Source: a virus (taxonomy: Duplodnaviria; Heunggongvirae; Uroviricota; Caudoviricetes). From it: 64,000 nt of DNA. Positions 4,920-57,003 of this stretch are shown piece after piece. Both the position numbers and the translations under genes were made by a program. The notes under the pieces are model-generated. The model saw only the letters and a program-made list of their open reading frames with translations. It was not told the DNA's origin and searched no databases. Each line of letters begins with the position of its first letter. Positions within the stretch are counted from its first letter, which is position 1. The stretch lies in the IMG/VR virus record IMGVR_UViG_3300032280_000361; one strand, given 5' to 3'.

Positions 4920-4951
4920 CAAATATAAGATTAAAATTTGGTATTTCCAAA
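4920..4951 (-). promoter_or_regulatory. Bacteroidota-type primary sigma promoter (-33/-7)
   Basis: Sense strand reads TTTG-N20-TATATTTG, an exact match to TTTG-N19-21-TAnnTTTG; helicase ATG is 4 nt downstream. Confidence 0.8.
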
Positions 4952-8888: not shown

Positions 8889-9062
8889 TTATTTATTTTT
8901 ATTTTTAAAAAATTCTTCTACCTTCTCCTCTAAAAAATTAATTGAATCGGAATCTCCTGTCCAACCCTCATATTTGATATAATATTCAATTAGGTTAGGA
9001 TTTTCTTCTAACCTCTGTTTTAGTTCACTTAATGTAGGTATGTATATGTTTATATAAGTCAT
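8889..9062 (-). CDS. Small hypothetical protein (57 aa), absent from the ORF track
   Basis: Manual translation MTYINIYIPTLSELKQRLEENPNLIEYYIKYEGWTGDSDSINFLEEKVEEFFKNKNK; TAATG overlap with the upstream stop; fills the gap exactly. Confidence 0.75.
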   Translation of the reverse strand: MTYINIYIPTLSELKQRLEENPNLIEYYIKYEGWTGDSDSINFLEEKVEEFFKNKNK

Positions 9063-9418
9063 TACTTAGCCCACTTTCCTCTGCTAACTAATTGTGCAAT
9101 GATTCCATATACAGATAAATCCTGATAAGTATCATCTATTGCTTCTCCCACATTATCTTGCTTACCTAATACCACTAATTGTTTTAATCTCTGAATCTTA
9201 TCATTCATTCTGAACCATAATCCCGTTTGAGATAATTTTCTTTCATCTTCGGTAACTAATGATGTTCCTACTGATATATTACCTGGTCCGTAATTTGATT
9301 GTTTTAAACAGAAGGTTTCATATCCTTCTATCATAATCTTTTTGTATTCCGCTGTCGTTTCCGGATACTCCTGCTCTATTTGAGCCACCACTTCTGGGTT
9401 CTTATAGTTGATTGTCAT
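9062..9418 (-). CDS. DUF1599 / nucleotide-modification-associated domain protein
   Basis: KQSNYG..NI, GLWFRMNDKIQRL and DTYQDLSVYGIIA pattern. Confidence 0.75.
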   Translation of the reverse strand: MTINYKNPEVVAQIEQEYPETTAEYKKIMIEGYETFCLKQSNYGPGNISVGTSLVTEDERKLSQTGLWFRMNDKIQRLKQLVVLGKQDNVGEAIDDTYQDLSVYGIIAQLVSRGKWAK

Positions 9419-9437: not shown

Positions 9438-9469
9438 TAAAGATAATAAGAAAATTTTACATTTCCAAA
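9438..9469 (-). promoter_or_regulatory. Bacteroidota-type promoter (variant -7 box)
   Basis: TTTG-N20-TATCTTTA upstream of the DUF1599 gene. Confidence 0.65.
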
Positions 9470-12400
9470 TTATTTTTTACATTTTACTATCCAAGTTGAA
9501 TAAGATACATTTATACCCGCTTTTCTCTTTCCGCTCGCATCACCTTTAATTTTGAGTTCTCCCGGATTTGGATTGAATTTAACACAGCACTTTTCATTTA
9601 TACCATCCAAAACTTCCATTGAAATTCTAGTTCGTGCACCGGTACCACTTTCTACAAATCTAACATTACCAAAGTTATTTGATTTAACGTCTTCATTGAA
9701 CATCATCTCAAATAACATCCCAGTCTTATTATATAATTTTAATCCTCTATCAAATTCAGCATCCATTTCCTCTTCCCCTAAACTATTTTGATATGATTTT
9801 TTAGCCTGCTGGTAAGCGGACGGTTTACCACCAATACCATTAATTGCTTTATTTTCTACATCAGAAACCATTCTTTCCGCTTGTTCAGCAGTTTTACCCT
9901 GTCCAATTAAAATTTCTATCATATGGGCTCTCTGTACTTTATAACCTTCTTCCGCTTTATCAATTGCTTCTTTTGAAGGTGGATAATCTCCATAAATAGC
10001 ATGATAGCTATCCATCATTGAATCTAATACTTCTTTTGTTTTTTCATTATTAAATGTACTTCCATCAGTTTTTGAAGGGCCGGCACTTGCACCACCCTTA
10101 CCCAATTTAATGCTTTCAGCATCACTATCAATAAATGAAATACTATTTGCAGAGTATTCATTTGCATAAAATTCCGCTAATTCTTCTGGAGTTGCGTTTT
10201 CCGGTGGGGTTTTTTGTTGATTAAATGAAACTATATCAACAGTTGGGAAGTTTGATGATGAAGGTAAAAATGCCTGATTTCCTTTTCCGATTTCATTCAT
10301 AAATACTAAAACTTCCGCTATATCAGGACCACCTGATGCTATATCTTTATCTCTTCTTATATTTTGTAATACATTTGTAAGTTTACCTAAATATTCTGCT
10401 GATGCTTTTTCTTTTTCCTCTGCACTCATAGAATCCCAATTCGGATTGTTTATGGGTGCGGATTTTTCTATCTCATCTATACTTTTAAATAAGTCTGCAT
10501 ATTTTTCTAAAATTTCTTCTTCAGATAATCCCGAATATTTTTTTATAGATTTTAATATACTTTTTCTAGTTTTATCTATTGTATTCTTAAGGGTCTTTTT
10601 TCTATTATCATTGGTATCAGTTGGACCATAATCCACCACTTCCATTTCACCATCTTTTGAAAGTTTATCAACCATTGTGTTTCCTCTTTCAATAGCAGCA
10701 ATTACTTTCCTAGCTTCTTCGTTTGCCTCCTCTTCAGAAGAACCTTGTTTAATAAATTGTTCAACTAAATTTGTTTGTTCTACTAAAGTTTTCTTATCCG
10801 GCACTGGTCTTTTAGTATAAGTAACCCCATCTACTGTTACGCTATTTCCATTTTCGGAAACTTCAAATTTTACTTTTCTGCGTTTTTTATTCATCTTATT
10901 TGCAGTCCAATCTTTTTTATTTACATACGCACCAGTTTGGGTTCTAATAGGTAATCCATATTTATTTACCATACTATCATTCCACTCCTCTGTTTTAGTA
11001 TCATAATCCTCAACCTTTTGAGGGTCTATATTCATTTGGATTTTTTCTCTTGAATTAGAATTAAAATCTCCTTCTGTTTTAGCTATATAAAGACCAATAT
11101 CATTTCCTCCTCCAACTCTAACCGCTAACCACTTACTTGCAATTTCTGAATTATTAGGGTCTACATCTTCTCCTTTAAGAATTTTGGCAATAGTATCTTT
11201 TAATATTTCTTTAGTTGAATCATCCGCTTCAGAATTATCGATATGTTTATTAGCCTCTGATATACGCTTTTTTATAACATCATCGCTTATTTTCAAATTA
11301 GTTCTTGCAGTTGCTACATCTACATTAGGAGTACCCTCTTCTTTAGCGTTTTGAACTTCTTTATTTGCTTCAGGTTGGTCTTTAACATCAATAGATTTAA
11401 CCATTACTTCTTTACCTGAGGGAGTTTTCATAGTTAAATTTTCTTCAAATAATAAATGTATAAATTTAATATTTTCTTCTATGAATACTTTATTAACTAC
11501 ACTTTCAGATTTCATATATTGAGCAGTTCCACCTTTTGTATCTGAATAGTATCCTCCGCCTAATGGATATATAACACCACCTTCTTTTTCATTAGGTTCT
11601 TTTGGTTTAGGTAACTCTCCATCTTTAGCATCTGCTTTTTTAGCTGCAATTCCCATATCTTCCGCAAACTTATTCGCCATTGGAATCGCATCTTTAATAT
11701 CCATATCGATTACCGTTGATTTCATTGGTATCGGATTATTAGGATTCTTAGCGTTATGTGCTACAATTGCAGCCCATCTATGATGTCCATCGATTACATA
11801 CCCATCTCTACTCACATATATTGGTGCAGTAATCTTTGGATGATTAGGGTCTTTCTCCAACGCTCCCATCATACCAATTACTTTACCACCAACTAAATCT
11901 TTCTGTGTTGCTTTTAGTTTATCAGCAGGTACTTCTGTTTGTAATACTTTGATGTTCTTCTCTTTCAACATCTCTCTGAATACTGGCTCTGTATCTACTT
12001 CGCCATCTTTATCCGTTTCCATTCCTGCTGCTCTACTACCATCCACTGCCTTTCCTTTGAATTGAGGCATTTCTTCTCTAGGTATTCCTTTATTATCATC
12101 ACAATATAAGTTGGTTCCAGGAATAGTAATATCACATAAGTTGATGTCCGGTGCAGGTTCTCCTTTAGCCTTTGCATCATCTAACATTTTACTAATCTTA
12201 CTTATATCGGTATTGAATTGGTTTAAATCGTTTGGAGAAATTCCATCTAATGCTTTACCATCTTTACTGAATGTTTCTTTATCAGCTTTCGGCATTTCAT
12301 CTGCAATTTTTTCAGGTTCAACTTTCTTAGTTTCAGTTTTTCTATCCGAACCTTTTTGCATCATCTTATCAACTAATTCAACATGACTCTCTCCTGCAAT

Positions 12401-14647
12401 TACAATTGGTATCTTACCTTTCGCTACTAATTCTTTTCTTTTCTCTATAATATTCTCATCTCTCGTATCATTGAACGCAACTTGAATATCATTTATTTTT
12501 GTTTCCTTATCACCATTATCCTCCGGAAATGCTAATCTGAATAATGTACCTCTATCACCACTTCCTTCTGGATTTTCTTCATTAGGTACTTCTCCCGATG
12601 GGTTATCAAAATTTTCTATTGGTGGGAATCCAGCTTCTTTAACCGCATCTTCTAAGAATTTTCTACCTTCATCATCTAAGAAATCTTTTGGTGACATTGT
12701 ATCAGTTCCCTCACCTTGCCCAATCATACTAGCCCAATTACCAGCTTTCACTTGTGAATGATTAAGACCAGTTTTCTCCATTTGTTTTTTATACAACTTA
12801 GATTGGTCATCATGTACATCTAACTCATCACCATCCCATGTATCAATTCCAGCTCCCAATTTCTCAAATCTCGGAGCTGCATAATCCATTTCATCGTTAA
12901 ATTCTAAATCTCCTTCATCATTTGTTGCACCACCCTCTCCTAAGAATACAATATTTTCCCATTCTTCTTGAGGAATAGTTGCTTTTATTTGGTCAATTAT
13001 ATCATCAACCATTTTGGTTTCACCATGAACGGTTCCAAACATCATTCCACCATCTTCAAATTCTATTGTTTGGATTTCTTTACCTGATTTTTTACCTTTA
13101 AATTTCTGTACTTTTGAATCAGTATCTTCATTAGCCGATTCTAATCTAGTAGGTTCTCCAACTGTACCTTTTCCAGAATCTTCTTGTTTATTCTTATCTA
13201 TCGTTTGTTGTGATTTAAATGCTCTGGCTTTAGCTTTATTCTGTGTACTTGCTTTAGGGTCATCTAAAACTAAATCAGGATTATCTTTTGGTAAAGTTTT
13301 TTCAGCTTCCTTTTCTTTGGTATCCAATGCTTTTGTAGCAGTATCAATCATAGATGCAGTATCCGGCTTATCATTATCAGATTCTCCATCAGTTGGTTCT
13401 TCTGAAGGTGTTTGATTGTTTAACTCAGCTTTTTCTTTATCTGTTAAAGGTCTTAAATTACCTTTATCATTTTTAAGCTCAGCTTGTCCTCCATCTTTAC
13501 TAGAATAATATCCACCTCCTAAGTGAAACTTACCCGGAAATTCTTTTGATTCACCCTTACCATCTTCTTCATTTAGTATTCTATTAAACAATTCATTTAA
13601 ATCTATTACTTCCGATTGTGGTTCGTTTGGTTTTTTCTTTTCGTTGTATGAATCAACCATAGACATCATTAATTCATCCGGTATATCCATATTCTCCATA
13701 TTATCAGCCACAGCATCCATAAAATCAGCTAACATTCTTTCATCATCTCCATCTGCTCCCGCAAATAAAGATGCTCTACCAACTCCAACTATAATAGTTT
13801 CGGCTACGGCGTGTGGTATCAATTCCATTGCAACGTGCTTAGCAAAATAAGCAGCTCCATGTGCCAATCCACCTCCCGCTGCAGCAAATAATGCAGTACT
13901 AGCTACCTTAATTCCAACTGATATTAATGCCTTCTTTTGTTCTTTTTCTAATGGTTTTCCACTTACCAAATTCTTAACGGCTGCACCAGCAGCTTTAAAT
14001 GTATGAACCTCATGCTTAAACCCATGAGCAATAGCATTTCTAGCACCTTTTACTTTATCTTTTAACGTATCCGCAAAACTTCTACGAGTTGGTGAACCAG
14101 GTTTATCTTCTCCTTTTTTGAAAAATTCCTTTTCTTTTTCACTCCATTTTTCTACTTTACTTTTCAATACATCCGCAGGTGTTTTAACTACGGGTGCAGT
14201 TTTCATAGGAGCAGGTGCTTCTACGGAAGAATCTTTTGGTTTTTCTACTGAAGGTGTTTCGGGTGAAGGTTGATTTGGTTTAGGAGTGTCGTTAGGCTTT
14301 TCCGCAGTAGGTGGTTTACTACCCTTTGAATCGAACTTAGCTTTTTCTTCAGGAGTTACGGGTCTTAGATTACCCTTATCGTTTTTAAATTCAGCTTCTC
14401 CTCCATCTTTAGAGGAGTAGTATCCTCCACCTAAATGGAATTTGCCTGCAAATAAACCAGATTCTTTTTCATTTTCCGCCTCATTTATAAACATCTCTTC
14501 CAACAACGGTTTAAGATGTCCATAACCCAATTCATCACATATTTCTAATAACGCAAAAACCTGCTCTCTATCCTTCATATTAGGGAATGGATATGTTACA
14601 GATAATTCTAAAAGAAGCTCATCTATGATTTTATTAATATCAGCCAT
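9470..14647 (-). CDS. Giant multidomain (polyvalent-like) protein with ParB/Srx-like domain
   Basis: 1725 aa; IYVSRDGYVIDGHHRWAA ParB motif; three LGGGYYS repeat modules; TraB-like and nuclease-like motifs. Confidence 0.8.
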   Translation of the reverse strand: MADINKIIDELLLELSVTYPFPNMKDREQVFALLEICDELGYGHLKPLLEEMFINEAENEKESGLFAGKFHLGGGYYSSKDGGEAEFKNDKGNLRPVTPEEKAKFDSKGSKPPTAEKPNDTPKPNQPSPETPSVEKPKDSSVEAPAPMKTAPVVKTPADVLKSKVEKWSEKEKEFFKKGEDKPGSPTRRSFADTLKDKVKGARNAIAHGFKHEVHTFKAAGAAVKNLVSGKPLEKEQKKALISVGIKVASTALFAAAGGGLAHGAAYFAKHVAMELIPHAVAETIIVGVGRASLFAGADGDDERMLADFMDAVADNMENMDIPDELMMSMVDSYNEKKKPNEPQSEVIDLNELFNRILNEEDGKGESKEFPGKFHLGGGYYSSKDGGQAELKNDKGNLRPLTDKEKAELNNQTPSEEPTDGESDNDKPDTASMIDTATKALDTKEKEAEKTLPKDNPDLVLDDPKASTQNKAKARAFKSQQTIDKNKQEDSGKGTVGEPTRLESANEDTDSKVQKFKGKKSGKEIQTIEFEDGGMMFGTVHGETKMVDDIIDQIKATIPQEEWENIVFLGEGGATNDEGDLEFNDEMDYAAPRFEKLGAGIDTWDGDELDVHDDQSKLYKKQMEKTGLNHSQVKAGNWASMIGQGEGTDTMSPKDFLDDEGRKFLEDAVKEAGFPPIENFDNPSGEVPNEENPEGSGDRGTLFRLAFPEDNGDKETKINDIQVAFNDTRDENIIEKRKELVAKGKIPIVIAGESHVELVDKMMQKGSDRKTETKKVEPEKIADEMPKADKETFSKDGKALDGISPNDLNQFNTDISKISKMLDDAKAKGEPAPDINLCDITIPGTNLYCDDNKGIPREEMPQFKGKAVDGSRAAGMETDKDGEVDTEPVFREMLKEKNIKVLQTEVPADKLKATQKDLVGGKVIGMMGALEKDPNHPKITAPIYVSRDGYVIDGHHRWAAIVAHNAKNPNNPIPMKSTVIDMDIKDAIPMANKFAEDMGIAAKKADAKDGELPKPKEPNEKEGGVIYPLGGGYYSDTKGGTAQYMKSESVVNKVFIEENIKFIHLLFEENLTMKTPSGKEVMVKSIDVKDQPEANKEVQNAKEEGTPNVDVATARTNLKISDDVIKKRISEANKHIDNSEADDSTKEILKDTIAKILKGEDVDPNNSEIASKWLAVRVGGGNDIGLYIAKTEGDFNSNSREKIQMNIDPQKVEDYDTKTEEWNDSMVNKYGLPIRTQTGAYVNKKDWTANKMNKKRRKVKFEVSENGNSVTVDGVTYTKRPVPDKKTLVEQTNLVEQFIKQGSSEEEANEEARKVIAAIERGNTMVDKLSKDGEMEVVDYGPTDTNDNRKKTLKNTIDKTRKSILKSIKKYSGLSEEEILEKYADLFKSIDEIEKSAPINNPNWDSMSAEEKEKASAEYLGKLTNVLQNIRRDKDIASGGPDIAEVLVFMNEIGKGNQAFLPSSSNFPTVDIVSFNQQKTPPENATPEELAEFYANEYSANSISFIDSDAESIKLGKGGASAGPSKTDGSTFNNEKTKEVLDSMMDSYHAIYGDYPPSKEAIDKAEEGYKVQRAHMIEILIGQGKTAEQAERMVSDVENKAINGIGGKPSAYQQAKKSYQNSLGEEEMDAEFDRGLKLYNKTGMLFEMMFNEDVKSNNFGNVRFVESGTGARTRISMEVLDGINEKCCVKFNPNPGELKIKGDASGKRKAGINVSYSTWIVKCKK

Positions 14648-14651
14648 AAAA

Positions 14652-15047
14652 TTAATTAAATTCTATTTTTTCAAAAATTCTAGTTGGAACTTTTCTAATT
14701 CCTTGTAAACCCGTTAATATAATACAATTTCTAAATTTATCCCAATCTAAAGAGAATGAGGTATCTAATACTCCTCCGTTTTCCTCTTTAATTAATTGAT
14801 TCAATGCATTGATTGTATATAGGGTATTCGATTGTTTCTTTCTATGTACCAATATAGTGTTGGATAACTGCTTATTTGGTCTGAACTCCACATCGATATT
14901 ATATGTAATATATAACTCATCTAAATTCGTCTTATTCTGTAGAATGTAGATGTAGTTATATACTATTTTATAATTTTCTCTAATTTGCTGTAATATATCC
15001 TGCAAAACTTCTTTATCCGTAAAGGTGCATAGTAACTGTGTTTTCAT
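14652..15047 (-). CDS. Conserved hypothetical protein
   Basis: 131 aa, LLCTFT and LVHRKKQSNTLYTINALN; lies between polA and the giant gene. Confidence 0.8.
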   Translation of the reverse strand: MKTQLLCTFTDKEVLQDILQQIRENYKIVYNYIYILQNKTNLDELYITYNIDVEFRPNKQLSNTILVHRKKQSNTLYTINALNQLIKEENGGVLDTSFSLDWDKFRNCIILTGLQGIRKVPTRIFEKIEFN

Positions 15048-15077: not shown

Positions 15078-15086
15078 TATAAGTAT
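15078..15086 (-). promoter_or_regulatory. Variant late motif ATACTTATA
   Basis: One mismatch to ATATTTATA; abuts the polA stop, about 30 nt upstream of 15047. Confidence 0.5.
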
Positions 15087-16324
15087 TAAATATTTCCGTA
15101 ACTATAATTTTTCTCCACCTTTGTAGGAGATATTCTATGTAAAACCTCCTCTATTTTAGATAAAAGTTCAATTTCGTTAGTATCAACATCAAATAAAAAA
15201 GAATCATATGTGTAAAGTACCAATTTTGTCTTAGTATTTTCTAATAGAATATTCAGTTGATGAAGTAGTAAAACGTTTTGTTCAGTCTCTAATGCCTGTA
15301 AATAATAGTTGAATACCTTTTGTGGGTTATGTTTATCTATCTTAGTGAAAGGTATTCGTTTTCCAAATCTAGTCTCAATAAACCCATTAACTATAAATTG
15401 GTTATAAAGTTTGATTATAAAATCATTTGTTTTTTGGAAAAATGGTATCTCTAAATTATGAACATCTATTCCACCATATAATTGTTGGAAAGTAATCTTC
15501 TTACTATTAAGGTAATCCTCTTCTGTTAATTCTTCTTTCCCAAAATATTGTCTCCCTAACCATTCATGTGCAGAACCTTCGGGTATAATCTCTCCTATCA
15601 ATTTTGCAATCAATCGAATATGATATCCATCAAAATCATATTGAACCAACTCTCCATTCTTACTAACGATAAAATCTCTACTACCATCCGATTTCTTAAG
15701 AGCAGAATAATTTACTCCTCCAAATGTATTCGAAGGTCTTCCTGTAGTAGTAAAATTATTGTAAAGAGAATACTCATATCCATATGTGGTAGGAATACCA
15801 TTTGCTTCGATTCTAAGGAACGATGGGATTGTATAATCATTATACCTAGCAAATCCATTTGAATCGATTCTAACGTACTTAGCGTTCTCCACAACGAACT
15901 CCACAACTCCTTTTAGAATAGTTGCAATTGGAATGAATGAAATATCACTTTTATCCCTATATCCATTGGTGAAAGATTGGTATATCATATCATACGCATA
16001 TGATTTAAATTCCATTAAGTGGTATGAAACATCTACACTTTTCCAATTTGTAATTTTGGTTTGGTGTAAGAACCATTTTGTATCAAAGATGTACTTAATC
16101 CTATCACTTCTTTCTAATATGGATAGGCTAACTGGCACACAATCATTGTGGTCTTCCATTATAACCCAACAATGTTCTCCTATAAACACAAAAACACCCA
16201 ACAGCTTATTGGCTATAGGGTGTTGTGTTCTATTTTTGAATAGTGGGAATATAACGGAATCTTTGGATGTATATTCATCCATAAATCGTGTCGCAATATC
16301 TTTATTTTCTACATAGTAAACCAT
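15086..16324 (-). CDS. Divergent, compact family A DNA polymerase
   Basis: TTTGRPS, motif A DFDGYHIRL, motif B KKITFQQLYG, NYYLQA, motif C YTYDS; ATG at 16324 preferred over the track TTG, which lies inside the -7 box. Confidence 0.85.
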   Translation of the reverse strand: MVYYVENKDIATRFMDEYTSKDSVIFPLFKNRTQHPIANKLLGVFVFIGEHCWVIMEDHNDCVPVSLSILERSDRIKYIFDTKWFLHQTKITNWKSVDVSYHLMEFKSYAYDMIYQSFTNGYRDKSDISFIPIATILKGVVEFVVENAKYVRIDSNGFARYNDYTIPSFLRIEANGIPTTYGYEYSLYNNFTTTGRPSNTFGGVNYSALKKSDGSRDFIVSKNGELVQYDFDGYHIRLIAKLIGEIIPEGSAHEWLGRQYFGKEELTEEDYLNSKKITFQQLYGGIDVHNLEIPFFQKTNDFIIKLYNQFIVNGFIETRFGKRIPFTKIDKHNPQKVFNYYLQALETEQNVLLLHQLNILLENTKTKLVLYTYDSFLFDVDTNEIELLSKIEEVLHRISPTKVEKNYSYGNI

Positions 16325-16330
16325 ATAGAA

Positions 16331-16362
16331 CAAATATACGAAAAATTTTTAAGAATTCCAAT
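16331..16362 (-). promoter_or_regulatory. Bacteroidota-type promoter
   Basis: ATTG-N20-TATATTTG, 6 nt before the polA ATG. Confidence 0.7.
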
Positions 16363-17587: not shown

Positions 17588-19729
17588 CTATCCTTTATAA
17601 AATGGTCTAAAACGTCCGGACACTTCTGTAATCCATTGTTTAGTATCTACTTTATGTGTAATCTCTTCTACCTGAAATGCACCTCTTTTATTATACTGAG
17701 GAGGTAATCCAATAACTCTATATAAATGTCCAACCTTAAATCCACTCATCCCTAATACAGTAAAACTAAATTCAACATCTAATGGTCTTCCAGTGTAAGC
17801 CTCACCCGTTCCTTTCACTCCATTCATATTTGTTCCAGTTTTTCTTACATCGGTAAATACCTTTTTATTAAGATACATTCCAGCTCTTCCCCATGCATCA
17901 ACATTATTTTCTTCAATTTGGTCTTTATCTATAAATTCAGGATTCATTATGATTTTTACATTTCTCCTCAAATCTTTCCATGCATTATCCTTTGTATCAT
18001 CAGCCTCTATTGTTTGGTCAGGTTTAGCTGTTTGAGTTTCTACATTTAATTTTTTAAGTATGTTATCTTTTTGATTAGAAAATAGACCAGTTAATTCATT
18101 AGGGTTAGATACCTTCCCATCGGTAGCTTTCTCCATATAAACCTTTGAAGACATTTCCTTAGATATAGTTAAATTAAAGTTACAATCTAAAAAGAAACTT
18201 TTTGTACCTATCATATTAAATTCAACGATACTACTTCCTCCGCTTGGATTTCTTAAATTTCCATCTGCAATAACTAATGTTCCTCCATTTTCAATTATCT
18301 GAAATCCCCACATACCATCAACTGCTTCACTCATTACACTTAATACCCCATCTAATACATCTTTAATAGGTCGGGTTACATCTCTCCATGCCTGAATTGC
18401 TACTTCCATATCAATGAATACATCTCCTATCCATCCACATGTTCCTGCAGCTATAGTTACACTTTCATTTCCTTTTGTGTATGTTTGACCACCTTCTCTA
18501 GGAAAACTTATTCCTCCTACCGATGTATCAATCGTAGCTGCTCCTTTTCCAGCTGGTGCAGATGCTACATAATATGGTTCATCATTTAAAAAGTTATAAG
18601 ATTTTTTATTTGGAATAAAAACTCTCTCATCGGTAGAAAATATACCTGAGAAAGAACTTATAAATATTTTTGGTGCATCTCTAGTTCCAATATCCATTGT
18701 AAAATCCGCTGGTGCACCTTCACCTGTTTCGAATTTTACTCTCATTTGATTTAATATTTCTATAAACATATAGAAACTCAAATATTTTTTACTCGTTATA
18801 GGGCTCTCCGAATCAGTTGCGGTCATTTGTTTTCCTTGCCATACCATATCACCGGAGAATGTGTTATTAAACATCCCCTTTGTTGTTTCAAATTTCGCCT
18901 CATCTAATGCTGATTCATTAAAATTTACAAAGTCACCTTTTGGATTAGCTTTAGCTACCGCAGCTAATACAGATGTAGTTCTAAATTCAGCAGGAAGTTG
19001 ATTAAAAAAATAAGAAACGTTTACTGCTGGGTCTTTTGCTTCTTCTTGTTGTGTTATAGTTTTACCTGGAACTACAACTGGCGATGGTTTCTCTGCTACA
19101 GTATCAACCTGCACTCCTTCCTGAGAATGATTCATAAGTATTTCTCCCATAGTTGTAATCTTACAACTAATGTTAAATTCCTCACCACTTATACCAGATT
19201 CTCCACCGGTTATAATGCCTACTAAATTATCATAACATCCTCCATTTGAACTTCGTATATCAAACAATGCATCTGGGTTTCTATTATATTTGTTTACATT
19301 ACCGGCATTAGCAGCAACCGGCCCTACACTTTTTCCTTTTGAAATAGAATAATTCCATCCCCATTGTACCATAATACTGATACCAGGTTCCATAAAATAT
19401 TTTTGCATTTCAGTAAGTTGCTCAGGAGTGAAACATTTAATTTTTAATGTTGCCATTCTTAATGTTCCCCTATTTGCAAAGTCAATTGAAAAATCTGTAA
19501 TGATTGGGTTTGGTCGGTACTTCATTTCCGATGTAGTATCATATGAAGGATTACCTCCTCCGAATATACTATCATACTTACCACTTGATAATGTAAATTG
19601 ACTTCCTAAATTAGAAGTTGCTGAAATCCAAGGTACTAGACGTGAAACTTTTATCGGGTCTATTCTAGCCTCCAATTCCTTTACAATATAATCATCTATT
19701 GATTTGTACCACGGAAACCCTACTGCCAT
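17588..19729 (-). CDS. Probable baseplate hub protein (gp27/VgrG N-like)
   Basis: Follows the LysM gene; C-terminal FTVLGMSGFKVG..FQVEEITHKV...WITEV pattern of hub proteins. Confidence 0.6.
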   Translation of the reverse strand: MAVGFPWYKSIDDYIVKELEARIDPIKVSRLVPWISATSNLGSQFTLSSGKYDSIFGGGNPSYDTTSEMKYRPNPIITDFSIDFANRGTLRMATLKIKCFTPEQLTEMQKYFMEPGISIMVQWGWNYSISKGKSVGPVAANAGNVNKYNRNPDALFDIRSSNGGCYDNLVGIITGGESGISGEEFNISCKITTMGEILMNHSQEGVQVDTVAEKPSPVVVPGKTITQQEEAKDPAVNVSYFFNQLPAEFRTTSVLAAVAKANPKGDFVNFNESALDEAKFETTKGMFNNTFSGDMVWQGKQMTATDSESPITSKKYLSFYMFIEILNQMRVKFETGEGAPADFTMDIGTRDAPKIFISSFSGIFSTDERVFIPNKKSYNFLNDEPYYVASAPAGKGAATIDTSVGGISFPREGGQTYTKGNESVTIAAGTCGWIGDVFIDMEVAIQAWRDVTRPIKDVLDGVLSVMSEAVDGMWGFQIIENGGTLVIADGNLRNPSGGSSIVEFNMIGTKSFFLDCNFNLTISKEMSSKVYMEKATDGKVSNPNELTGLFSNQKDNILKKLNVETQTAKPDQTIEADDTKDNAWKDLRRNVKIIMNPEFIDKDQIEENNVDAWGRAGMYLNKKVFTDVRKTGTNMNGVKGTGEAYTGRPLDVEFSFTVLGMSGFKVGHLYRVIGLPPQYNKRGAFQVEEITHKVDTKQWITEVSGRFRPFYKG

Positions 19730-19733
19730 AATT

Positions 19734-20012
19734 TTATAAATTATTTATTATCAAAAACTTATCCTTTGGAATTCTTAGTTGAATACCAGCTTCAACTCCT
19801 ATATTTACACCATTCAAATTATTTGCTTGTGCAATAATCCACCATAATCTACTATCGTTATAAAATTGATTAGCCAACAAATCCAATCTATCTGAATCTT
19901 GTGTGATAATATAGATATCATCATCTCTTTTTTCAATGGTAGTTGGAATATTAGTCTTCAATACTTTCTTACCATTTGCCAATTTTCGTATTCCTATTTT
20001 TTCGTATCTCAT
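19734..20012 (-). CDS. LysM-domain baseplate protein
   Basis: DRLDLLANQFYNDSRLWWIIAQANNL..GIQLRIP; start placed at ATG 20012 to avoid overlapping the upstream gene. Confidence 0.85.
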   Translation of the reverse strand: MRYEKIGIRKLANGKKVLKTNIPTTIEKRDDDIYIITQDSDRLDLLANQFYNDSRLWWIIAQANNLNGVNIGVEAGIQLRIPKDKFLIINNL

Positions 20013-20013
20013 A

Positions 20014-21978
20014 TTAAATAGTATTTTTATTAGCACTCTTACTAATAGGTTTACCATATCCATAAAGATTATTCTGAGTTGTATTTCTAGACTCAATAAA
20101 TGTTAATCCTATTGATGCGTTAACTATCTTAGGTAATTTATAATGGTCCATATTTAAATCACCCGAATTATAATTAATTTCTTTTTCCTTTGCTTTTATG
20201 TTAGAACTATTTGTTCCTTTATTATATACCTCATTATTCTCTACTTCAAACTTACCGATTTTTTGAGTTTTTTTAATACCACTTATAGATAATAGTTTAG
20301 AGTTATTATCTGCTCCAACATTAAATCTACTATTGAAATCAACAAACCTACCATCTTTTGTTTTTATTTTATCTCCTCCTAATTCCCATAGATTTTCCGA
20401 TTCATCTATTGAATATGATAAACTATCTATAAAACAAACTTTATCAACATATAGATTACCAAATGTAAAATATATTAAAGTAGGTTGAAATATACCACTT
20501 GCAGTATAAGAATCTGGATATGTACAATGTGAAATAAATTCTAATCTTCTCCACATTAATACTAACTCAGGTTGAGACATTGCATAACTCTTAAAATTAA
20601 AAGTTAATTTTCTCTCTACACTTGTAAAGTTATAAAAATTAAAAGGATGTCCTAACATTCTACTCGAATCCCATCCAGGTGAAAATGTTTCATTAAATCC
20701 TGTCACTACTGAACGTACATACACTGCACTTCCATCATTTACTTTTTGAAAACGTAGTGGTATCAAATCTACTTCAGAAATATCTGTACCATTTACTTTA
20801 ACAGTTTGTAATTCGGATTCTGTAAATTTACCGGTTTGATTTAATATATCTCTATCCGTATATAATCCTCTTCGTTTTCCTAATTCATTATTCAAAACTG
20901 CATCTTTGTTATAGATAGATTTTTTAGATGTGTCCTTTGAATATCGTGTTATTTGTTTTTCTTTTAATGTAGACGGTTTTAAAAATTCTAATAGTGTATT
21001 GTTTTTTAATTTACCTTCAAATAATGATTGGTTAGAACCCGTTGGTAAATAAGGATTTACAAATGTATTAAATTCTCCTAACTTCTGTTTAGTAGGTTCT
21101 CCGAATTTTTTATGAGTAGTATCTTCGGATAAAACTAATCCATATGTACTTTTATTTGACCATCTAACTTTTCCAAAAACTCCAGTTGTACCTTTTAATC
21201 CTTTTACATTCGATGTTGAAGTAATATCAATTTGGTTATATGAATTTGCTTCTGTAAGTTTAGCCATTGAAGTTTCATATGTATTTCCATCAAAATATTT
21301 TTGATTAAAAAATCCACCATAATTATCTAAACTACCCGATGTTATAGGTACAACTCTATTATTATTTCCTAATGTACTTCTAATCGCTCCTTTTGCCAAA
21401 CCTATACCACCTCCGATTACCTGCTTTGATGCCTGTTGGGGAGTTCCTCTAGCAGTATCATTTAGATATCTACCAATTAACGAACCTGCCGCATCTTTTT
21501 TTATCTTAGCAATTGTTTCGTTTGTTAAAGGCTCTTTTCCTTTTTGAAATGCTTCTTCTGCTCTCAATGATGATGGATATATCGTAGTAGGTATTCCTAA
21601 GAATTTATTTACCTTTCCAGCAAATCCATTTGAATTTTTTAATATTGATACTACTGCTGCGCTATCTTCATTTGTTTTAGCCGCAATCATACCTTGTATA
21701 AAAGAAGTTGTTTTTTGTTGTAATCTTACCGTATCAGTACCATATAAAGTAGGTTCATTTATAAATCTCCTAACTCTTAATCCAGTTGTTTCTTGTTCAA
21801 ACGCAGTTTCCTTTAATGGGTCATCAGTTCCTAACGCATTTCCCAAAAAATTACCTACTTTATTTTTTCTATCAATAAGAAATTGACCTCCCTGAGAAGT
21901 ACCACTTGTAGGAGGTGCCTGTGGTATTTGTTTTGATATTTTATTGCTTTCAAAAAGCTCTAATATTGATTTTCCCAT
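20014..21978 (-). CDS. Probable tail tube initiator / baseplate junction protein
   Basis: Between tape measure and LysM genes; C-terminal FNETFSPGW..ERKLTFNF..PTLIYFTFG..IDSLSYS tube-like fold pattern. Confidence 0.6.
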   Translation of the reverse strand: MGKSILELFESNKISKQIPQAPPTSGTSQGGQFLIDRKNKVGNFLGNALGTDDPLKETAFEQETTGLRVRRFINEPTLYGTDTVRLQQKTTSFIQGMIAAKTNEDSAAVVSILKNSNGFAGKVNKFLGIPTTIYPSSLRAEEAFQKGKEPLTNETIAKIKKDAAGSLIGRYLNDTARGTPQQASKQVIGGGIGLAKGAIRSTLGNNNRVVPITSGSLDNYGGFFNQKYFDGNTYETSMAKLTEANSYNQIDITSTSNVKGLKGTTGVFGKVRWSNKSTYGLVLSEDTTHKKFGEPTKQKLGEFNTFVNPYLPTGSNQSLFEGKLKNNTLLEFLKPSTLKEKQITRYSKDTSKKSIYNKDAVLNNELGKRRGLYTDRDILNQTGKFTESELQTVKVNGTDISEVDLIPLRFQKVNDGSAVYVRSVVTGFNETFSPGWDSSRMLGHPFNFYNFTSVERKLTFNFKSYAMSQPELVLMWRRLEFISHCTYPDSYTASGIFQPTLIYFTFGNLYVDKVCFIDSLSYSIDESENLWELGGDKIKTKDGRFVDFNSRFNVGADNNSKLLSISGIKKTQKIGKFEVENNEVYNKGTNSSNIKAKEKEINYNSGDLNMDHYKLPKIVNASIGLTFIESRNTTQNNLYGYGKPISKSANKNTI

Positions 21979-21980
21979 TA

Positions 21981-24455
21981 TTAACTTATTGGATTTCTAA
22001 CTGCGTTTGCTGCAATTTTTGCGTTCATTCTTTGACCATCTATATTAACTGCAATTTTACCGGCAGCCAAATCAGCTCTCATCCCTTGCATTTCAGCAAT
22101 CAATGAACTAACTAATGCCGCAGTTCCTCCTCCTTCTCCTCCACCGATTTGTCCAGCTAATGCCGAAGGGTTTTTAGATGCAATTAAGAAGTCTGCGGGG
22201 TCTGTTGATATAACCTGTCCATTTTGCATAACACCATCGTTAACGCTTTGTGTTTCTCCGCCACCTCCCGCTTCTTCTCCACCCATACCGAAGAAACCTT
22301 TAACCATTTCCCATCCTGATTGTATGGTACTTATAAAACTCATAATTGGTTCTACTAAATAAGTTTGTAAAAAACCACTTATCATATCTATACCGCCAAA
22401 TACGAAATCAAATAATATTGAAAATGCTCCAACTAAAACATCGATAGCTCCACCGATTACAGTACCTAATAATTCTCCTATAAATGAAAACACAGGAAGA
22501 ATAGGAGCAATACCTTCCATTATCTTATCTTTCAATTCTGTAAATTTAGCCATTAATGGTTCTAATTTTTCGCTTATAGTAGCTAACGGTTTCGATATGT
22601 TTTCCATAATAGCACTTGCAATTGCAAATATTGGTTTTACTATTGCCATAAGCAAATCCCACATAACTCTTAAAGGCATCAATGCTATGTTTAAAACTGA
22701 ACCTATTGTACTAAATACCGGCATTAACGTACTTTGTAACAAATCTATAATATCTGTTATTATCGGCATTAATACTTTTCCTAACGGCATTAACGCATCC
22801 ATAAACCCAGTACTTAATGCACTAGCTCCGTTCGATAATTTATCCATTTGGGATTGCATATCTTTTTGAGATGCCATTTTTTTATTTTGTAAATCCAAAT
22901 CAGCAGCACTTATTTGAGTTATATCTTTTCCAGCATCCATTAATGCATGTGCCGCTGCTAAACGACCTTCATCTAAGTTTCCGAATTGTTTTTGAATTCG
23001 TTGCATATTAACCAATTCCTCAACTGATTTACCGGTTGCCTTAGCTAATGCTTCTTTTGAGTACATATCCATTTTATTGATATCACCCACTTTCATCATT
23101 TCTTCCATTATGGCCTTTTCTTGCTCATATTGGTTTCCAGCAAATGCCGCAGCTCTCGCTTTTTCTAAGTTTATATCAGCACCTAGCATTGCACTTGCTT
23201 CTAATTCATTTGCAATACTACTTTCAAAATCTAATAACGATTCAGATGATTTTGCAGCACTCTCCAATGAAGAACCCATCGCAGCTAAACTAACTGCTGA
23301 TTTAGCTAATTCTTTTGGTGAACCTCTAAAATACTTAAGAGTATTTGCACTATTATCAGCAATATCCTTCATCACTTGTTGTGGAGCAACTCCTGCTAAC
23401 TTACTCATTTCAACAACTGACATACTCATTGATGCCGCCTGAGCTTCAGTTAATCCACCCAAGTTCTGCATCACTTTATTTACTTTGGAAGCTTCATCAA
23501 ATCCAACTCCAAAGTTTTTATTCATTATAATTAAAGATTCTACAGTTGATTTTGCAGGTTGTTGAATACCATCGAAAGCAGTTACAAAACTTGAAGCTGC
23601 TTTTCCTACATCTTCGGCCGTTGCCCCTAAATTTGCATATTCTACTGATACACTTGAAATTGTACTCTGTAATCCTTTTGTTTGTGAATTAAGTAATCCG
23701 GTTGTATCTCTAAATTGTTGAGCAGCCTTATCTATTTCCGAAAATCTTTTTACCCCTAATGCTAATGCACCAACAACCAATCCTATTATTACCAATGGTG
23801 ATGCAAACGCAGCCATTAATGATTGTCCCAATGCGGGTGCCGCGGCTCTTAACGAACCCATCATACCTAAATTATTATTCAATCCAGCTCTGAAATTTGT
23901 TACAAATCCTTGCGCTGCATTTCCTAATTTATTTTTAATCGCATCACCACCCATTGAAGCTACTTTGGATAACATTCCCCCAACTACTGGTATTTGATTT
24001 AATCCATTTGTTATTGTATCAAAAGAATCTGCAAATGATTGAGTTAAACTATCTGCAACATCTCTTACCTTTTCAGTAGCTGCTAATCTCTGCTGTTCAA
24101 TATTAAGTGTTTCCTCAGCTATTTCTAAAGCTCTTAGCATTTCTCTACCTATTACAGCATTTATACCAACATATGAACCAGCTACTCTTATTTTTTCACT
24201 TTCGATTTCTACCAATTTTTTTGCAACATCTTCGGATGATTCTAATTGAGTCATCGATGATTTTAAATCGTTATGATAGTCTTTTACTCTTCTACCTAAT
24301 GTTGTTCTATAATCAATTTCATTATCAATAGATTGTGCCGCTGCAGATGTCATAGACGCGGATATCTTAAGAGCTTCATTATATTCATTTTGAAGTCTTA
24401 TGTTTTCTTTTTGTCGTTCTGCTAATTGTTTCGCCTGGTCGTCTAATGATGCCAT
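21981..24455 (-). CDS. Tape measure protein
   Basis: 824 aa, helical Ala/Leu-rich with hydrophobic amphipathic repeats; canonical position after tube and chaperone. Confidence 0.85.
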   Translation of the reverse strand: MASLDDQAKQLAERQKENIRLQNEYNEALKISASMTSAAAQSIDNEIDYRTTLGRRVKDYHNDLKSSMTQLESSEDVAKKLVEIESEKIRVAGSYVGINAVIGREMLRALEIAEETLNIEQQRLAATEKVRDVADSLTQSFADSFDTITNGLNQIPVVGGMLSKVASMGGDAIKNKLGNAAQGFVTNFRAGLNNNLGMMGSLRAAAPALGQSLMAAFASPLVIIGLVVGALALGVKRFSEIDKAAQQFRDTTGLLNSQTKGLQSTISSVSVEYANLGATAEDVGKAASSFVTAFDGIQQPAKSTVESLIIMNKNFGVGFDEASKVNKVMQNLGGLTEAQAASMSMSVVEMSKLAGVAPQQVMKDIADNSANTLKYFRGSPKELAKSAVSLAAMGSSLESAAKSSESLLDFESSIANELEASAMLGADINLEKARAAAFAGNQYEQEKAIMEEMMKVGDINKMDMYSKEALAKATGKSVEELVNMQRIQKQFGNLDEGRLAAAHALMDAGKDITQISAADLDLQNKKMASQKDMQSQMDKLSNGASALSTGFMDALMPLGKVLMPIITDIIDLLQSTLMPVFSTIGSVLNIALMPLRVMWDLLMAIVKPIFAIASAIMENISKPLATISEKLEPLMAKFTELKDKIMEGIAPILPVFSFIGELLGTVIGGAIDVLVGAFSILFDFVFGGIDMISGFLQTYLVEPIMSFISTIQSGWEMVKGFFGMGGEEAGGGGETQSVNDGVMQNGQVISTDPADFLIASKNPSALAGQIGGGEGGGTAALVSSLIAEMQGMRADLAAGKIAVNIDGQRMNAKIAANAVRNPIS

Positions 24456-31609: not shown

Positions 31610-34600
31610 TTATAACCCTCTTGCTCTTTTTAAATTTTCTACTTCTGATTTTAAGTTATCGATTTGTACTTGTTGCTCTTTCATACCTTCGATAAGAAGT
31701 GCAACTAACTTATCATACTTAACCGCTTTATATCCACTTTCTCTCGTTTGAACTAATTCTGGAAGTATCTCCTCAATTTCTTGTGCAATAACTCCGATAT
31801 CATGTCCTTCGTGTCCATGTAATTCAACGTTTGAAATCCAATCAAATTCGTATCCACCTATTCTTAATACCTTAGCCAATGCGTTTGGTATATTTTTGAT
31901 GTTCTCTTTAAATCTTCTATCCGATGAAGAGTAAGCTACGATATCATTTGCCGCATCGATTCTACCACTTGTTGCACTCGCCGCTACTCCAACTCCTAAT
32001 GAACCAACTCTAAAGTCAGCCGCAGTATGGATGTTTTGAGGTAATGATAATGATGCAGTAAATGCTCCGGTTGCGGTTACACCTCCTACGGTAATCTGAT
32101 TAGCAGTTCCTGTTATGTTACTTGCTCTAGATAATGTTGGGATAACTAATGAAGCAACACCGGTTGATGGATTTATTGATACCTCTCCACTTACCCAGTT
32201 AGCAACAGTTACTCTAGCTCCATTAGTAAAGTGTGTAGAACCAGTATTCAATGAAACAACATCTGCTCCAACTGATATACCATCTCCTGCTCCTACCGCT
32301 AAAGTATGAGCAACACCTTCTCCACTTGTCGCACCACCGGTTAAACCAGCTCCAGGATTAATAGTTGCAACATAATCTCCTGTCGTATCAGTTCCTAATG
32401 CAATTGAATTAGCTGCGATTGTTGCAGTACCATCAGTTGCAATAGTAACATCTCCTTTGATATAAGATACAACCGCTTGTTGAGAACCTGATTGGAAATG
32501 AATTGATTGTGTATCAATTGCGAATGTAGTATCCGTTTGATTCTTAAATACTGAACCACTAATACCACTACCCGCAGTTACATAATATTGTAAATTTCCT
32601 TTGTATTCTCCTGCAGTTACTTCTCCTCTGAAATTAGAAGCAGAAGCACTTACGAATCCACTTGCACTCATATTAAGAGAAGCGGTTATTGAACCTGTTA
32701 CTCTTAAGTTATTAGAGAACCATGCAGTAGAACCTGTGATTGGTCCAACGAATGATGAAGAACCATAAAAGCCTTCACCTTCTATTCTTAATCCACTTGC
32801 GGTTATTACACCACTTGCAGAAATATTACTATTGAATGTAGAAGCTCCATCATGTATAGAAGTTCCCGTTGTTCTAAAGTTTCCGTTTATTTGTGCACCA
32901 CTACCTGATATAGCACCACTCGCAGAAATTGTACTTCTTACGGTTGTAGCACCAATAATCAATGCAGTTCCATCAAATTGAACATTTGATAATGCTCTAA
33001 TTTCACCTGCTGACCAAACCCCACTACCTGTGATACCCTTACTTGCAGAGATGTATTCTTTACCACTTATGTTTCCAACAACTTCTAATGCTCCACTTAT
33101 GTTTGTAGCGTTTTGTACAAATAATGCAGATGCACTAATTGTATTACTCGCAGATATCGCACCTCTTATCGAAGTTGCACCTTCTACAAATAATGCTCCA
33201 CCACTAATGTTTCCACTCGCTGATATATGATTTAATGATGCAGTTTGTGCTACCAATATAGTTGATGAAGTAATTGCTCCATTTACAAACAATCCACTAC
33301 CTAATCTCATATTAGTTTCAGCATTCGACCATGAGAAGAATACGTTAGCACCACTTATGAATAAACCTGCTCCGTTTGCAGCAACCGATGTAGTTGAACC
33401 ACTAGCGATTTCAATTAAACGGTCTTCAATTTTTAAATCTGAAATTTGAAGTTGAGTTGTTGTACCCAATACATTCAAATCACCTTGTATAGTTGTTACA
33501 GATGAAACACCTGTTCCTGCAACGGTTATAGCATTTTTCAATGAAGAAGAATAAACTTCTAACGCACCGGTTGCTTGGTTAACTTGATTTCTAAATGTTA
33601 CTAAGTTGATACCATTTATAGTACTCGCATTAAAATCACCATTTACAGTAAAGTTCTTATCTAAGTACATATATTGCTCAGGATGGTCCCAATAGAAATT
33701 AACATTAGCACCACTTATGAATAAACCTGCTTTATCTGATTGAGCAGAAGTTGTAGAACCACTATTTATTTCAATTTGCTTATCCTTAACTTGTAATCTA
33801 TCAACTCTTAATTCACCTAATGTACCTCTAACTTGTAAGTTATTAAATACAATTAAATCACCATTACTTTCAGATATCGCACTTCTTAATGATGAAGTAT
33901 ATGCGTTTATTGATGAAGAGAAATTATTATGTGAAGGTGCGAATTCTCTAATTAAAGTTCCATCAACAGTTCCTCTTACTTCAATATTGTTATCAGAGTA
34001 AAGTGTATCAGAGAAATTTAAACTTTGAGAAGCGTGCGACCAAGTTACATATGCATCCGCACCACTAATGTAGAAACCTGCACCATCTGCCGCAGCTGAG
34101 TTCAATGAACCACTTGCGATTTCGATGAATTTATCTACTATCTTAACATCACCAACTTCTAATAATACTTTAGAACCAGTTACTCTTAATGTACCATGTA
34201 CTATTAAATCGTTTCCGTTTGTATTAATAGCTTGTTTTAATGAAGCAGAGTATGAGTTTAATCCACTCAATGCCAAATTAGTAGAAGCAGTGAATTGGTT
34301 AACCGAACCAGAGTATTCAAATCCGTATTCTCTAACTTGTATAGAAGAACTTACTACTTGTTCATAATTTATTTTTTTCTTAACACCTTCTTCAAAGTGT
34401 AAAGATTGTGTTGCAATTTTTACAGTAGCCGATGCACTACCATTATAGTTAAAGTAATCAAATCCACCTGCATCACCACCGGTAATAGCAAATGCCAAAT
34501 CAGCAGCTCCAGTAAATGAACCTGTGAATGAACCGGTTAAAAATCCGTTTCCACTAAATGAACCTGTTGCACTTAATGAGTTAAATACTGATAATGATGT

Positions 34601-56661: not shown

Positions 56662-56678
56662 TTTACTTTTTGATTGTG

Positions 56679-56755
56679 TTAGGCTAATGAGTGTGTGCCT
56701 AAATAAGATTATTTGATTATATGTGATTCCATATGAGATGGAATATTCGAATCAA
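56679..56755 (-). promoter_or_regulatory. Structured 5' leader of the scaffold-capsid transcript
   Basis: Nested TTGATT/AATCAA plus ATTCCAT/ATGGAAT stems, then a TTAGGC/GCCTAA hairpin; variant late motif ATACTTATA at 56761-56769. Confidence 0.5.
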
Positions 56756-56786
56756 TTACATATAAGTATATAACAGTTATAGAAAA

Positions 56787-57002: not shown

Positions 57003-57003
57003 A

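Follow-up and report, generated by a model that had tools for sequence, protein, structure and literature searches.

What is a single gene for a chain of 1725 amino acids (aa), assembled from several modules and a tag that is repeated three times, doing among the replication genes of an uncultured, aquatic T4-type phage? The question is raised by a locus in a stretch of 64,000 nucleotides (nt) from the virus record IMGVR_UViG_3300032280_000361 (Caudoviricetes), which is here called the window. The giant gene lies at 9470..14647 on the minus strand, where a preliminary description of the window had placed it, and the protein was read there as a late-made precursor that is packaged in the capsid, cut into tagged units and injected with the DNA. 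The present analysis upholds a good part of that reading, as relatives exchange units delimited by the tags, a protease-type motif is found at the tags, an S77 prohead protease is encoded in the same genome and the protein starts with a leader; the late promoter on which the description had relied is the part that was not confirmed. The sequence suggests to us a capsid-targeted polyvalent cargo protein, processed by the head protease and released as three units, a reading that we hold tentatively and at somewhat less than an even chance. The giant open reading frame (ORF) and its parts, of which the confidence of the models is given as predicted local distance difference test (pLDDT) values, are the following.

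9470..14647, minus strand: whole ORF (P0001), 1725 aa, stop codon at 9470-9472; full-length colinear orthologs at 38-95 % identity
14480..14647, minus strand: N leader, aa 1-56, predicted three-helix bundle ending I-N-E56|A, with six L/I-x-E sites (L/I at 8, 12, 33, 48, 49 and 54)
14330..14473, minus strand: tag 1 (type 1/2), aa 59-106, core GKFHLGGGYYSSKDGGEAEFKNDKGNLRPVTPEEKAKF, three short strands and a helix, pLDDT about 50-59
13613..14200, minus strand: module B, aa 150-345, helical, with two hydrophobic stretches (about 239-262 and 271-298) and low model confidence
13418..13612, minus strand: tag 2 with its upstream helix, aa 346-410, including L350-N-E352 and L358-N-E360|E
12323..13156, minus strand: module C, aa 498-775, alpha/beta, pLDDT 85-92, resembling the TIKI/ChaN/erythromycin-esterase fold
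11612..12322, minus strand: module D, aa 776-1012, with a ParB/sulfiredoxin-fold core at about 896-1003 and an invariant DGHHR at 953-957, pLDDT 75-89
11423..11611, minus strand: tag 3 (type 3), aa 1013-1075, reading GGVIYPLGGGYYSDTKGGTAQY and then F-I-E-E1058 and L-F-E1068|E; recombination breakpoint at 11584
9473..11422, minus strand: module E, aa 1076-1725, a large alpha/beta unit of 650 aa; model of aa 1101-1725 with pLDDT 84.3 and predicted template modelling score (pTM) 0.81

The order along the chain is leader, tag 1, B, tag 2, C, D, tag 3, E, i.e. at least five cargo or leader modules and three tags in one polypeptide, including two confidently folded domains and one large confident unit. 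The structure model of aa 1-1110 was based on an alignment of 44 sequences and has a mean pLDDT of 61. Pfam, NCBIfam and PHROGs gave no family above the cut-off for the whole protein (LPD models included) except phrog_2859, which has no known function, and PDB sequence searches, in which module E and a profile of aa 1-1110 served as queries, returned nothing better than E 0.4.

Tags and protease-type motifs

The three GGGYYS modules that had been noticed earlier are indeed present, with GGGYY at aa 73, 377 and 1030 (window 14455-14333, 13543-13421 and 11584-11462), and each is modelled, with low confidence, as three short strands and a helix. A six-frame scan of the 64-kb window found GGGYY nowhere besides these three copies in the giant ORF. 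Over 43 codons, copies 1 and 2 have 34 identical and nine differing residues, and 32 of the 129 nt differ. Different synonymous codons are used for 17 of the 34 identical residues, in agreement with the synonymous divergence described before, and this indicates that the duplication of tags 1 and 2 is old and has been kept at the protein level.

The cleavage motif of T4 itself is L/I-x-E. Motifs of this type accompany all three tags, at the very residues named in the preliminary description: I54-N-E56|A stands before copy 1 and L358-N-E360|E before copy 2, the Glu being in both cases exactly 17 residues before GGG, while copy 3 has its sites downstream, I1056-E-E1058 and L1066-F-E1068|E. In the relatives, which are related sequences and not independent events, [LI]xE ends 12-30 residues upstream of 86 out of 87 distinct type-1/2 tags (16 % in random windows), in 65 of the 87 at exactly -17, and is found at +38 in 58 out of 59 distinct type-3 tags (21 % in random windows of the same proteins). 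Upstream of the type-1/2 tags the local maxima of conservation are L/I at P3 (75 %), Glu at P1 (70 %) and Ala/Glu at P1' (74 %), with P2 variable, and in the type-3 tags (68 distinct ones) LLFE at +35..+38 is 76-100 % conserved. When the 24 colinear orthologs were compared, the sites with L/I at 49 and 54 were kept in all of them, the one at 350 in 23, at 1066 in 21, at 358 in 16 and at 1056 in 12; sites 350 and 1066 are thus retained although the local identity is 0.55-0.68. These comparisons support the view that the protease-type motif is an integral, conserved part of the extended form of each tag, a mini-module of about 45-65 aa.

The leader is even richer in such motifs. The first 58 aa of the giant protein contain six L/I-x-E against about 0.7 expected, the highest count among the 48 ORFs of the window, followed by the protease with five, o83 with four and the scaffold, o654, o105 and the capsid protein with three each. 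The model of the leader has helices at 2-18, 27-40 and 43-55 (pLDDT of the block 53-83). Leaders are homologous throughout the family, whatever the order of the modules downstream, and carry on average 5.1-5.6 sites, compared to 9-10 per 1000 aa in the remaining chain. As far as the motif tells, the giant protein begins with a propeptide-like stretch ending in a protease motif, as is characteristic of T4-type head cargo. The enzyme that belongs to such cargo, an S77 prohead protease, is encoded in the same genome:

57004..57609, minus strand: prohead protease, candidate processing enzyme; Pfam Peptidase_S77 E 1.7e-29 (103 bits, cut-off 27), phrog_207 E 8e-52

T4-family proteases are described as cutting after Glu, and the N-terminal targeting propeptides of their substrates as 7-65 aa long with redundant sites (PMC9026906, PMC5694885); the N-terminal LIE of T4 gp21 fits the cleavage logo of this enzyme (PMC9026906). 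In the window, a site lies within the first 20 aa in 14 of the 48 ORFs, among which are the giant and all six genes of the head cluster located between the portal and the major capsid protein (MCP), namely o292, o151, o335, protease, scaffold and MCP. The propeptide region of the MCP contains LLE|A, LLE|G, LLE|N and LQE|S, and the N-terminus of the protease is MKSLLIE|T.

If the giant protein is processed head cargo, its leader would act like a T4 capsid-targeting propeptide and bring the protein into the prohead core, where the S77 protease would remove the leader and cut after E56, E352/E360 and E1058/E1068. The first unit released would be tag 1 with module B, possibly a membrane-active hairpin, the second would extend from tag 2 through C and D to tag 3 and would combine a TIKI-like hydrolase with a ParB/Srx-fold (Srx, sulfiredoxin) NTP-binding or nuclease domain, and the third would be module E. 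The units would exit the head along with the DNA and come into action as soon as the infection begins, counter-defence or host takeover being their most likely task; that the giant gene is hypervariable between near-identical genomes would fit such a role.

Exchange of modules and separate tagged genes

It had been proposed earlier to search for cargo swapping with a hidden Markov model (HMM) of the GGGYYS module across phages, and swapping was indeed seen. The homolog search gave 449 proteins with E<=0.001 among 7999 scored candidates; architectures were taken from 120 listed proteins and the query. These 121 proteins fall into 29 architectures (BLAST and module HMMs), in which the cargo modules are swapped, permuted or dropped. 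With N for the leader and T for a tag, the order N-T1-B-T2-C-D-T3-E is found in 36 of the 121 proteins, an order that lacks exactly the B-T2 unit and is otherwise colinear in 16, and x-D-C-T3-x in 25; in C-T3-D-B and similar orders, E is replaced by other C-termini of up to 1607 aa.

The exchange is also visible between close relatives. In loci with the same order the proteins flanking the giant gene are 95-100 % identical (o131 98-100 %, o118 97-98 %, UvsX 97-100 %), whereas the giant proteins themselves, of 1395-1724 aa, are 39-92 % identical. The nucleotide matches break at 14316, just after tag 1, at 11584, where tag 3 starts, and at the end of the gene. Two of the loci, L016 and L012, have no nucleotide match in the E region (in L016 none between 11584 and 9479), module E having been swapped for divergent alleles in near-identical genomes. 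Sequence comparison thus places the recombination breakpoints at the tags and marks the giant gene as a variable island.

A profile of 25 tags matched only 53 clusters among 1.84 billion representatives, and many of the matches are smaller proteins, composed of a short leader, a tag and one cargo:

Module B behind leader, tag and linker: four proteins (339-378 aa; leaders for example MKILTLLSE| and MKLKVLLE|)
Leader, tag and module D: one protein of 365 aa
N leader, tag and module E: proteins of 734-792 aa
Leader, tag and other cargo: several proteins, with unassigned cargo

MRLNKILKE| is a further short leader. At least one site precedes the tag in 25 of 27 proteins with an N-proximal tag, in 23 of them by residue 20, and the two exceptions are fragment-like. 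The internal junctions of the giant protein copy the leader|tag boundary of these independent genes, which is the strongest argument for cutting at the junctions. One of the stand-alone genes with tag and module B is a complete ORF on a metagenome contig of 1195 bp without neighbours. As for the genomic context of the separate genes, a search of viral contigs with P0133 gave no match, a search with the A5 profile returned giant orthologs only, and in the nearest record (G001, 73 kb, 37 % complete) the tags are confined to its own giant gene.

Modules B or C are also found singly in another type of giant ORF, which starts with MNELSxYLVE/QILLE and contains a cytidylyltransferase-like domain (GRFQPFHKGHY). 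Giants of this type are located directly upstream of the terminase gene (L018 8483-13738, L028-L036, P0165); in L018 and L030-L032 the giants with module B or C adjoin both terminase and portal genes, and in L018, L031 and L032 the 8-mer TATTTATA, a putative late promoter motif that is treated below, stands just before the start. In 28 relatives and tag-bearing proteins the only Pfam matches were CTP_transf_like in P0165 (22.2 bits against a cut-off of 21) and DUF6752, the latter below its threshold. A wider proposal, and a more doubtful one than that for the giant protein itself, is that GGGYYS together with L/I-x-E may serve as a portable junction of cargo cassettes in an aquatic clade of T4-like phages, in which proteins with a leader or junction site followed by the tag would be taken up by the prohead and set free by the head protease.

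Time of expression and alternative explanations

The time at which the giant gene is expressed bears on all these readings. The T4 motif TATAAATA has 22 matches in the window against 15.1 expected, and as 20 of the 22 are on the non-coding strand, the motif on the gene strand reads TATTTATA, the coding-strand 8-mer whose reverse complement, on the plus strand of the window, is T4's TATAAATA. In 13 of the 48 listed genes TATTTATA occurs within 70 nt of the start (20-45 nt upstream). Ten of these genes belong to the structural block and the other three are gp32, o97 and PhyH, and the motif is probably the late-type promoter of this phage. The promoter-like sites and the two genes next to the giant gene are given below.

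8047, 8448, 17147, 24739, 26372, 28783 and 29096 (plus-strand hits), gene strand: TATTTATA sites from the motif scan
43347, 45818, 46697, 52751, 53167 and 59987 (plus-strand hits), gene strand: further TATTTATA sites from the motif scan
15078..15097, minus strand: promoter-like element GGAAATATTTAATACTTATA upstream of the o131/giant operon, matching GGAAAT-N8-CTTATA
4924-4948, 9445-9466 and 15078-15097, minus strand: GGAAAT-N6-16-CTTATW sites before the helicase gene, o118 and the o131/giant operon
14652..15047, minus strand: o131, 131 aa, first gene of the operon, 4 nt upstream of the giant gene
9062-9418, minus strand: o118, directly downstream of the giant gene; DUF1599 'nucleotide modification associated domain 1', 24.9 bits (cut-off 25)

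The element GGAAATATTTAATACTTATA is conserved upstream of o131 in nine of nine relatives, even where the flanks diverge. Its general form, GGAAAT-N6-16-CTTATW, has three occurrences in the window, all of them on the gene strand (expected 0.64; three of 100 shuffles reach three), which is weak evidence, as the pattern was defined after the sites had been seen. The site at 15078 had been taken for a late-type motif in the preliminary description; it belongs to this class, shared with the helicase gene and o118, and not to TATTTATA. Between the TATTTATA at 17147 and position 8967 no terminator-like site was found on the gene strand, so late read-through into the giant gene is possible.

Several observations speak against a packaged and processed protein. 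TATTTATA is absent upstream of the o131/giant operon, and the element found there, resembling as it does that of the helicase gene and o118, argues for non-late expression. The gene sits on the replication side of the genome, as had been described; it starts 2.9 kb beyond the last ORF of the tail/baseplate block (17588-19729) and has no structural-gene motif. Over its whole length the giant protein is not enriched in L/I-x-E (24 sites, 19.2 expected), the density in module E is ordinary, and neither the C|D joint nor either of the two long linkers contains a conserved site, from which it follows that not every joint would be cut. The sites lie at predicted helix ends, so that their conservation could be structural, and since at tag 3 the P2 residue is also invariant, a structural cause is possible for the conservation of LLFE as well. 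The preference for L/I at P3 is deduced, for this phage, solely from the sequences of its own head proteins, and among S77-type proteases the P3 preference varies, being A-x-E in SPN3US (PMC5694885). A profile of the leader family detected no homology to the head-core proteins of the window, the best score being that of the scaffold (E 0.01, 7.6 bits), and in a search of the phage collection cultured phages shared nothing beyond the ParB-like part with the giant protein.

Much of this would be accounted for if the giant were an intracellular multi-domain protein of early or middle infection, active in counter-defence or in DNA/nucleotide metabolism, with the tags as connector mini-domains and L-x-E as part of a helix. 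We regard this as possible, although well short of an even chance. It agrees with the position among replication genes, with the class of the upstream element and with the helix-end location of the sites, and further with the near-threshold DUF1599 match of the neighbour o118 and with the occurrence of kinases, e.g. SerK, among ParB/Srx folds. A protein that is never packaged leaves unexplained, however, why every full-length relative and separate tagged gene has a leader rich in L/I-x-E, why P3 and P1 are conservation maxima around a variable P2, and why giants sharing the same modules are found beside the terminase gene and behind TATTTATA.

It is less likely that the protein is packaged but, apart from removal of the leader, remains uncut and travels as a single large chain, comparable to T4 Alt or the virion RNA polymerase of N4, its internal sites being buried or unused. 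The enrichment in the leader, which is the strongest of the signals, the lack of sites at the C|D joint and in the linkers, and the packaging of the N4 enzyme in unprocessed form, as described in PMC5512222, would all suit this explanation. Against it stand the internal junctions, in which the boundary between leader and tag of the separate genes recurs with an identical offset of -17, and the retention of sites 350 and 1066 in 23 and 21 of the 24 orthologs in spite of a local identity of 0.55-0.68. Besides the head protease, another enzyme that might do the cutting is contained in the giant protein itself and is considered with module C.

Cargo modules, neighbouring genes and known systems

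Module B is preceded by a Pro/Thr/Ser-rich linker (aa 107-149). Its hydrophobic stretches are the only two in the giant protein, with a hydropathy maximum of 1.66.

In module C, H541 (GTVHG), E571 (GEGG) and H755 (GESH) are invariant in 44 of 44 sequences, and in the model each follows a beta strand. Fold comparison places ChaN (2g5g) at tied ranks 2-3 of 48,161 chains (Z 8.1, root-mean-square deviation (rmsd) 4.3, 159 residues aligned), and BcR135 (2rad/3b55) is found with Z 4.6/4.4 and 149/143 residues aligned. A Tetrahymena complex-IV subunit gives Z 8.0-8.4 over 174-185 residues; the C-terminal domain of FolC scores higher (Z 9.1), over 99 residues only. ChaN and BcR135 are listed in the TIKI superfamily, the active forms of which use His/Glu residues, and members of the family include endopeptidases with a 2His/2Glu site, for example the set in RRSP (PMC6254334). 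In module C the position of the first Glu of this set appears to be held by Thr (GTVH). The Pfam model TraB_PrgY_gumN matched none of ten C modules at E<=10, and no other Pfam model matched any of the ten; in the Atlas, TraB/PrgY/GumN ranks 24th for module C with a weak score of 0.77. We put the chance that module C, as modelled, is TIKI-like at about even.

The TIKI/ChaN-like module C, which was missed in the preliminary description, makes self-processing a rival to cutting by the head protease: a hydrolase with this His-Glu-His set could cut the chain at the GGGYYS tags or close to them, either in cis or in trans, and would take the role that a zincin-like peptidase has in other polyvalent proteins. 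The fold matches, the three invariant residues and the endopeptidases of the TIKI family would suit such an activity, as would the location of tag 3 directly after C or C-D in most architectures and the peptidase that polyvalent proteins usually carry themselves (PMC5512222). We nevertheless consider it improbable, since separate tagged genes with B, D or E as cargo have no module C, the fold match is middling and finds little echo in the Pfam and Atlas comparisons, and the TIKI family also holds esterases and non-enzymes, ChaN among them.

Module D matches phrog_2859 (E 7e-19) and, in its modelled form, has a ParB/Srx alpha+beta fold. Structural matches are the sulfiredoxins 1xw4 (Foldseek probability 0.91, TMt 0.55) and 6ky4 (VIA, Z 6.3, rmsd 3.2, 83 residues aligned), and at least 14 more Srx, ParB, Noc, PadC and SerK chains align with aa 896-1003, approximately, at Z 4.4-6.0; the Z values, though middling, are consistent. 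All 44 sequences have D953-G-H-H-R957 unchanged, and we take it to correspond to the GxxR/DGxHR box of the ParB/Srx family. Pfam ParBc did not match module D at E<=1, and NCBIfam SerK gave just 15.6 bits against a cut-off of 380. With tblastn, module D found a 155-aa protein of Vibrio phage Bakedbeans and a 'PLxRFG protein' of 3867 aa in Klebsiella phage ZX1. The gene of the latter closes the structural genes of ZX1, which may be counted as a precedent for the cargo reading.

For module E, Foldseek gave no match at E<=0.001 in pdb or BFVD. The best BFVD rows were uncharacterised phage proteins of 427-467 aa (probability 0.75-0.93, TM<=0.32), and a wide VIA search gave generic helical bundles only (Z<=8.8). 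The nearest named clusters of the Atlas are the restriction endonucleases PF11463 (0.86) and PF09556 (0.84). An assignment of module E as PD-(D/E)xK nuclease, with E1445, D1471 and S1512-x-K1514, was dropped, as the order of the secondary structure elements did not fit and there was no support for it.

PHROG and Pfam scans of the other ORFs of the window describe a distant T4-type myovirus with all genes on one strand. The packaging and head genes found are those for terminase, portal, S77 prohead protease, a scaffold-like protein and the MCP, and the tail genes those for sheath, tube and baseplate proteins. The closest capsid proteins, with 47-55 % identity, are those of an uncultured 484-kb phage record, Microcystis phage Mel-JY01 and Flavobacterium phage immuto. 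Beyond the tail block follow PhyH, a weakly family-A polymerase-like ORF, o131, the giant gene and o118, and past o118 a DUF454 protein, a gp32-like single-stranded DNA-binding protein, UvsX, an exonuclease, a DnaB-type helicase and ribonucleotide reductase.

The gene o131 adjoins the giant gene in all relatives. It lies upstream in loci of the window type (e.g. L007, L010, L012, L014 and L016) and downstream in the D-C clade (L022, L025 and L027), there with 70-72 % identity. Pfam and PHROG scans gave no match for o131, and it is possible that it is a partner or chaperone of the giant protein.

Some further observations were made in the window. The polymerase-like ORF of 415 aa (15086-16333, minus strand, TTG start) has a sub-threshold match to the C-terminal part of family-A DNA polymerases (21.9 bits, cut-off 34.3), which is odd in a T4-like phage; close relatives keep it at 94-97 % identity, distant ones at about 32 %. 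No ORF of at least 80 aa is listed for the 342 nt (56662-57003) that separate the protease gene from the scaffold-like gene, and a small head-core gene may be hidden there. The structural block contains two more giant ORFs on the minus strand, one of 2879 aa (31610-40249), matching fibre and baseplate-wedge-type proteins, and one of 1879 aa (46714-52353), the C-terminal domain of which (phrog_7964/5070) is common to an 888-aa ORF at 40650-43316. A second variable block, 17588-24455 on the minus strand, was seen in comparison with L007, L012, L014 and L016. It comprises o713, o654, o129 and a tape-measure-like ORF of 824 aa, which are 34-55 % identical where the replication genes are 95-100 % identical, and this block on the tail/baseplate side is likely linked to host range.

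The closest concept to the giant protein is that of the polyvalent proteins (Iyer et al. 2017, PMC5512222), in which 2-15 unrelated domains are combined in one polypeptide of a phage or conjugative element. As described there, polyvalent proteins share with the giant protein its size and multi-domain build, a ParB-superfamily domain and several domains that cannot be assigned, an extreme mosaicism in domain order (up to 50 combinations in Helicobacter jhp1044), and a predicted delivery together with the DNA and processing into units. They differ in that no zincin-like metallopeptidase (MPTase) was found in the giant protein, nor were a methylase, helicase or ADP-ribosyltransferase (ART) domain, and in that the predicted sites are of the prohead-protease type and come with a GGGYYS tag that is repeated. 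Genes of polyvalent proteins are expected next to virion structural or late genes; the giant gene of the window is on the replication side, and giants with module B or C adjoin the terminase gene in L018 and L030-L032. The main text of PMC5512222 contains neither 'TIKI' nor 'TraB' nor 'linker', and B, C, E or the tag could be among the LPD domains of its supplement. The string 'GGGYYS' was absent from the literature searched, and a search combining polyvalent proteins with the prohead protease gave no description of this tagged arrangement.

The closest mechanism is that of the T4 head cargo with a capsid-targeting sequence (CTS) that is cut by gp21. From the account in PMC9026906, T4 IPI-III and Alt resemble the present case in the S77 protease of the genome, the redundant propeptide sites and the use of unrelated enzymes as cargo. 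The leaders of the separate tagged genes, ending in hydrophobic-x-Glu, have 8-17 aa compared to 10 aa in IPIII, and Alt is processed at its two ends (PMC9026906), which tag 3 would also permit in the giant protein. The T4 cargoes are, however, single units of 8-76 kDa (PMC9026906), whereas the giant would hold several units in one chain of 190 kDa with internal junction sites. It would further differ from T4 cargo in the conserved tag that would stay on the mature unit and in the helical leader of 56 aa of the long form. DdrB and DarB of phage P1 and the virion RNA polymerase of N4 are large proteins carried in the head and delivered with the DNA, and DdrB has a ParB-type domain and is processed proteolytically before packaging (PMC5512222); none of these proteins gave a sequence match to the giant protein in the phage collection. 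Compared to the polyvalent proteins and to the CTS/gp21 cargo of T4, the features that appear to be new are the fused chain of several units, the internal junction sites, the tag, the TIKI-like module and the interchange between fused and separate genes.

The modules, which comprise a putative TIKI-like hydrolase, a domain of ParB/Srx fold, a hydrophobic hairpin and a unit of 650 aa without a known fold, are for the most part new to Pfam. If the tags are portable junctions, cargo genes could be fused, split, permuted and exchanged at them without losing delivery. This would amount to a plug-in system for injected effectors, in which the tag remaining on the mature unit might be a handle for retention or ejection, and a single gene of this kind would be a natural template for filling T4-type capsids with several foreign proteins. 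The rule, a leader or junction site followed by tag and cargo, would be readable from sequence alone, so that head cargo, including likely counter-defence enzymes, would become predictable in uncultured phages. The presence of a hypervariable island in near-identical genomes would also be explained, and T4-like phages of natural waters would be seen to carry large and fast-evolving sets of injected proteins.

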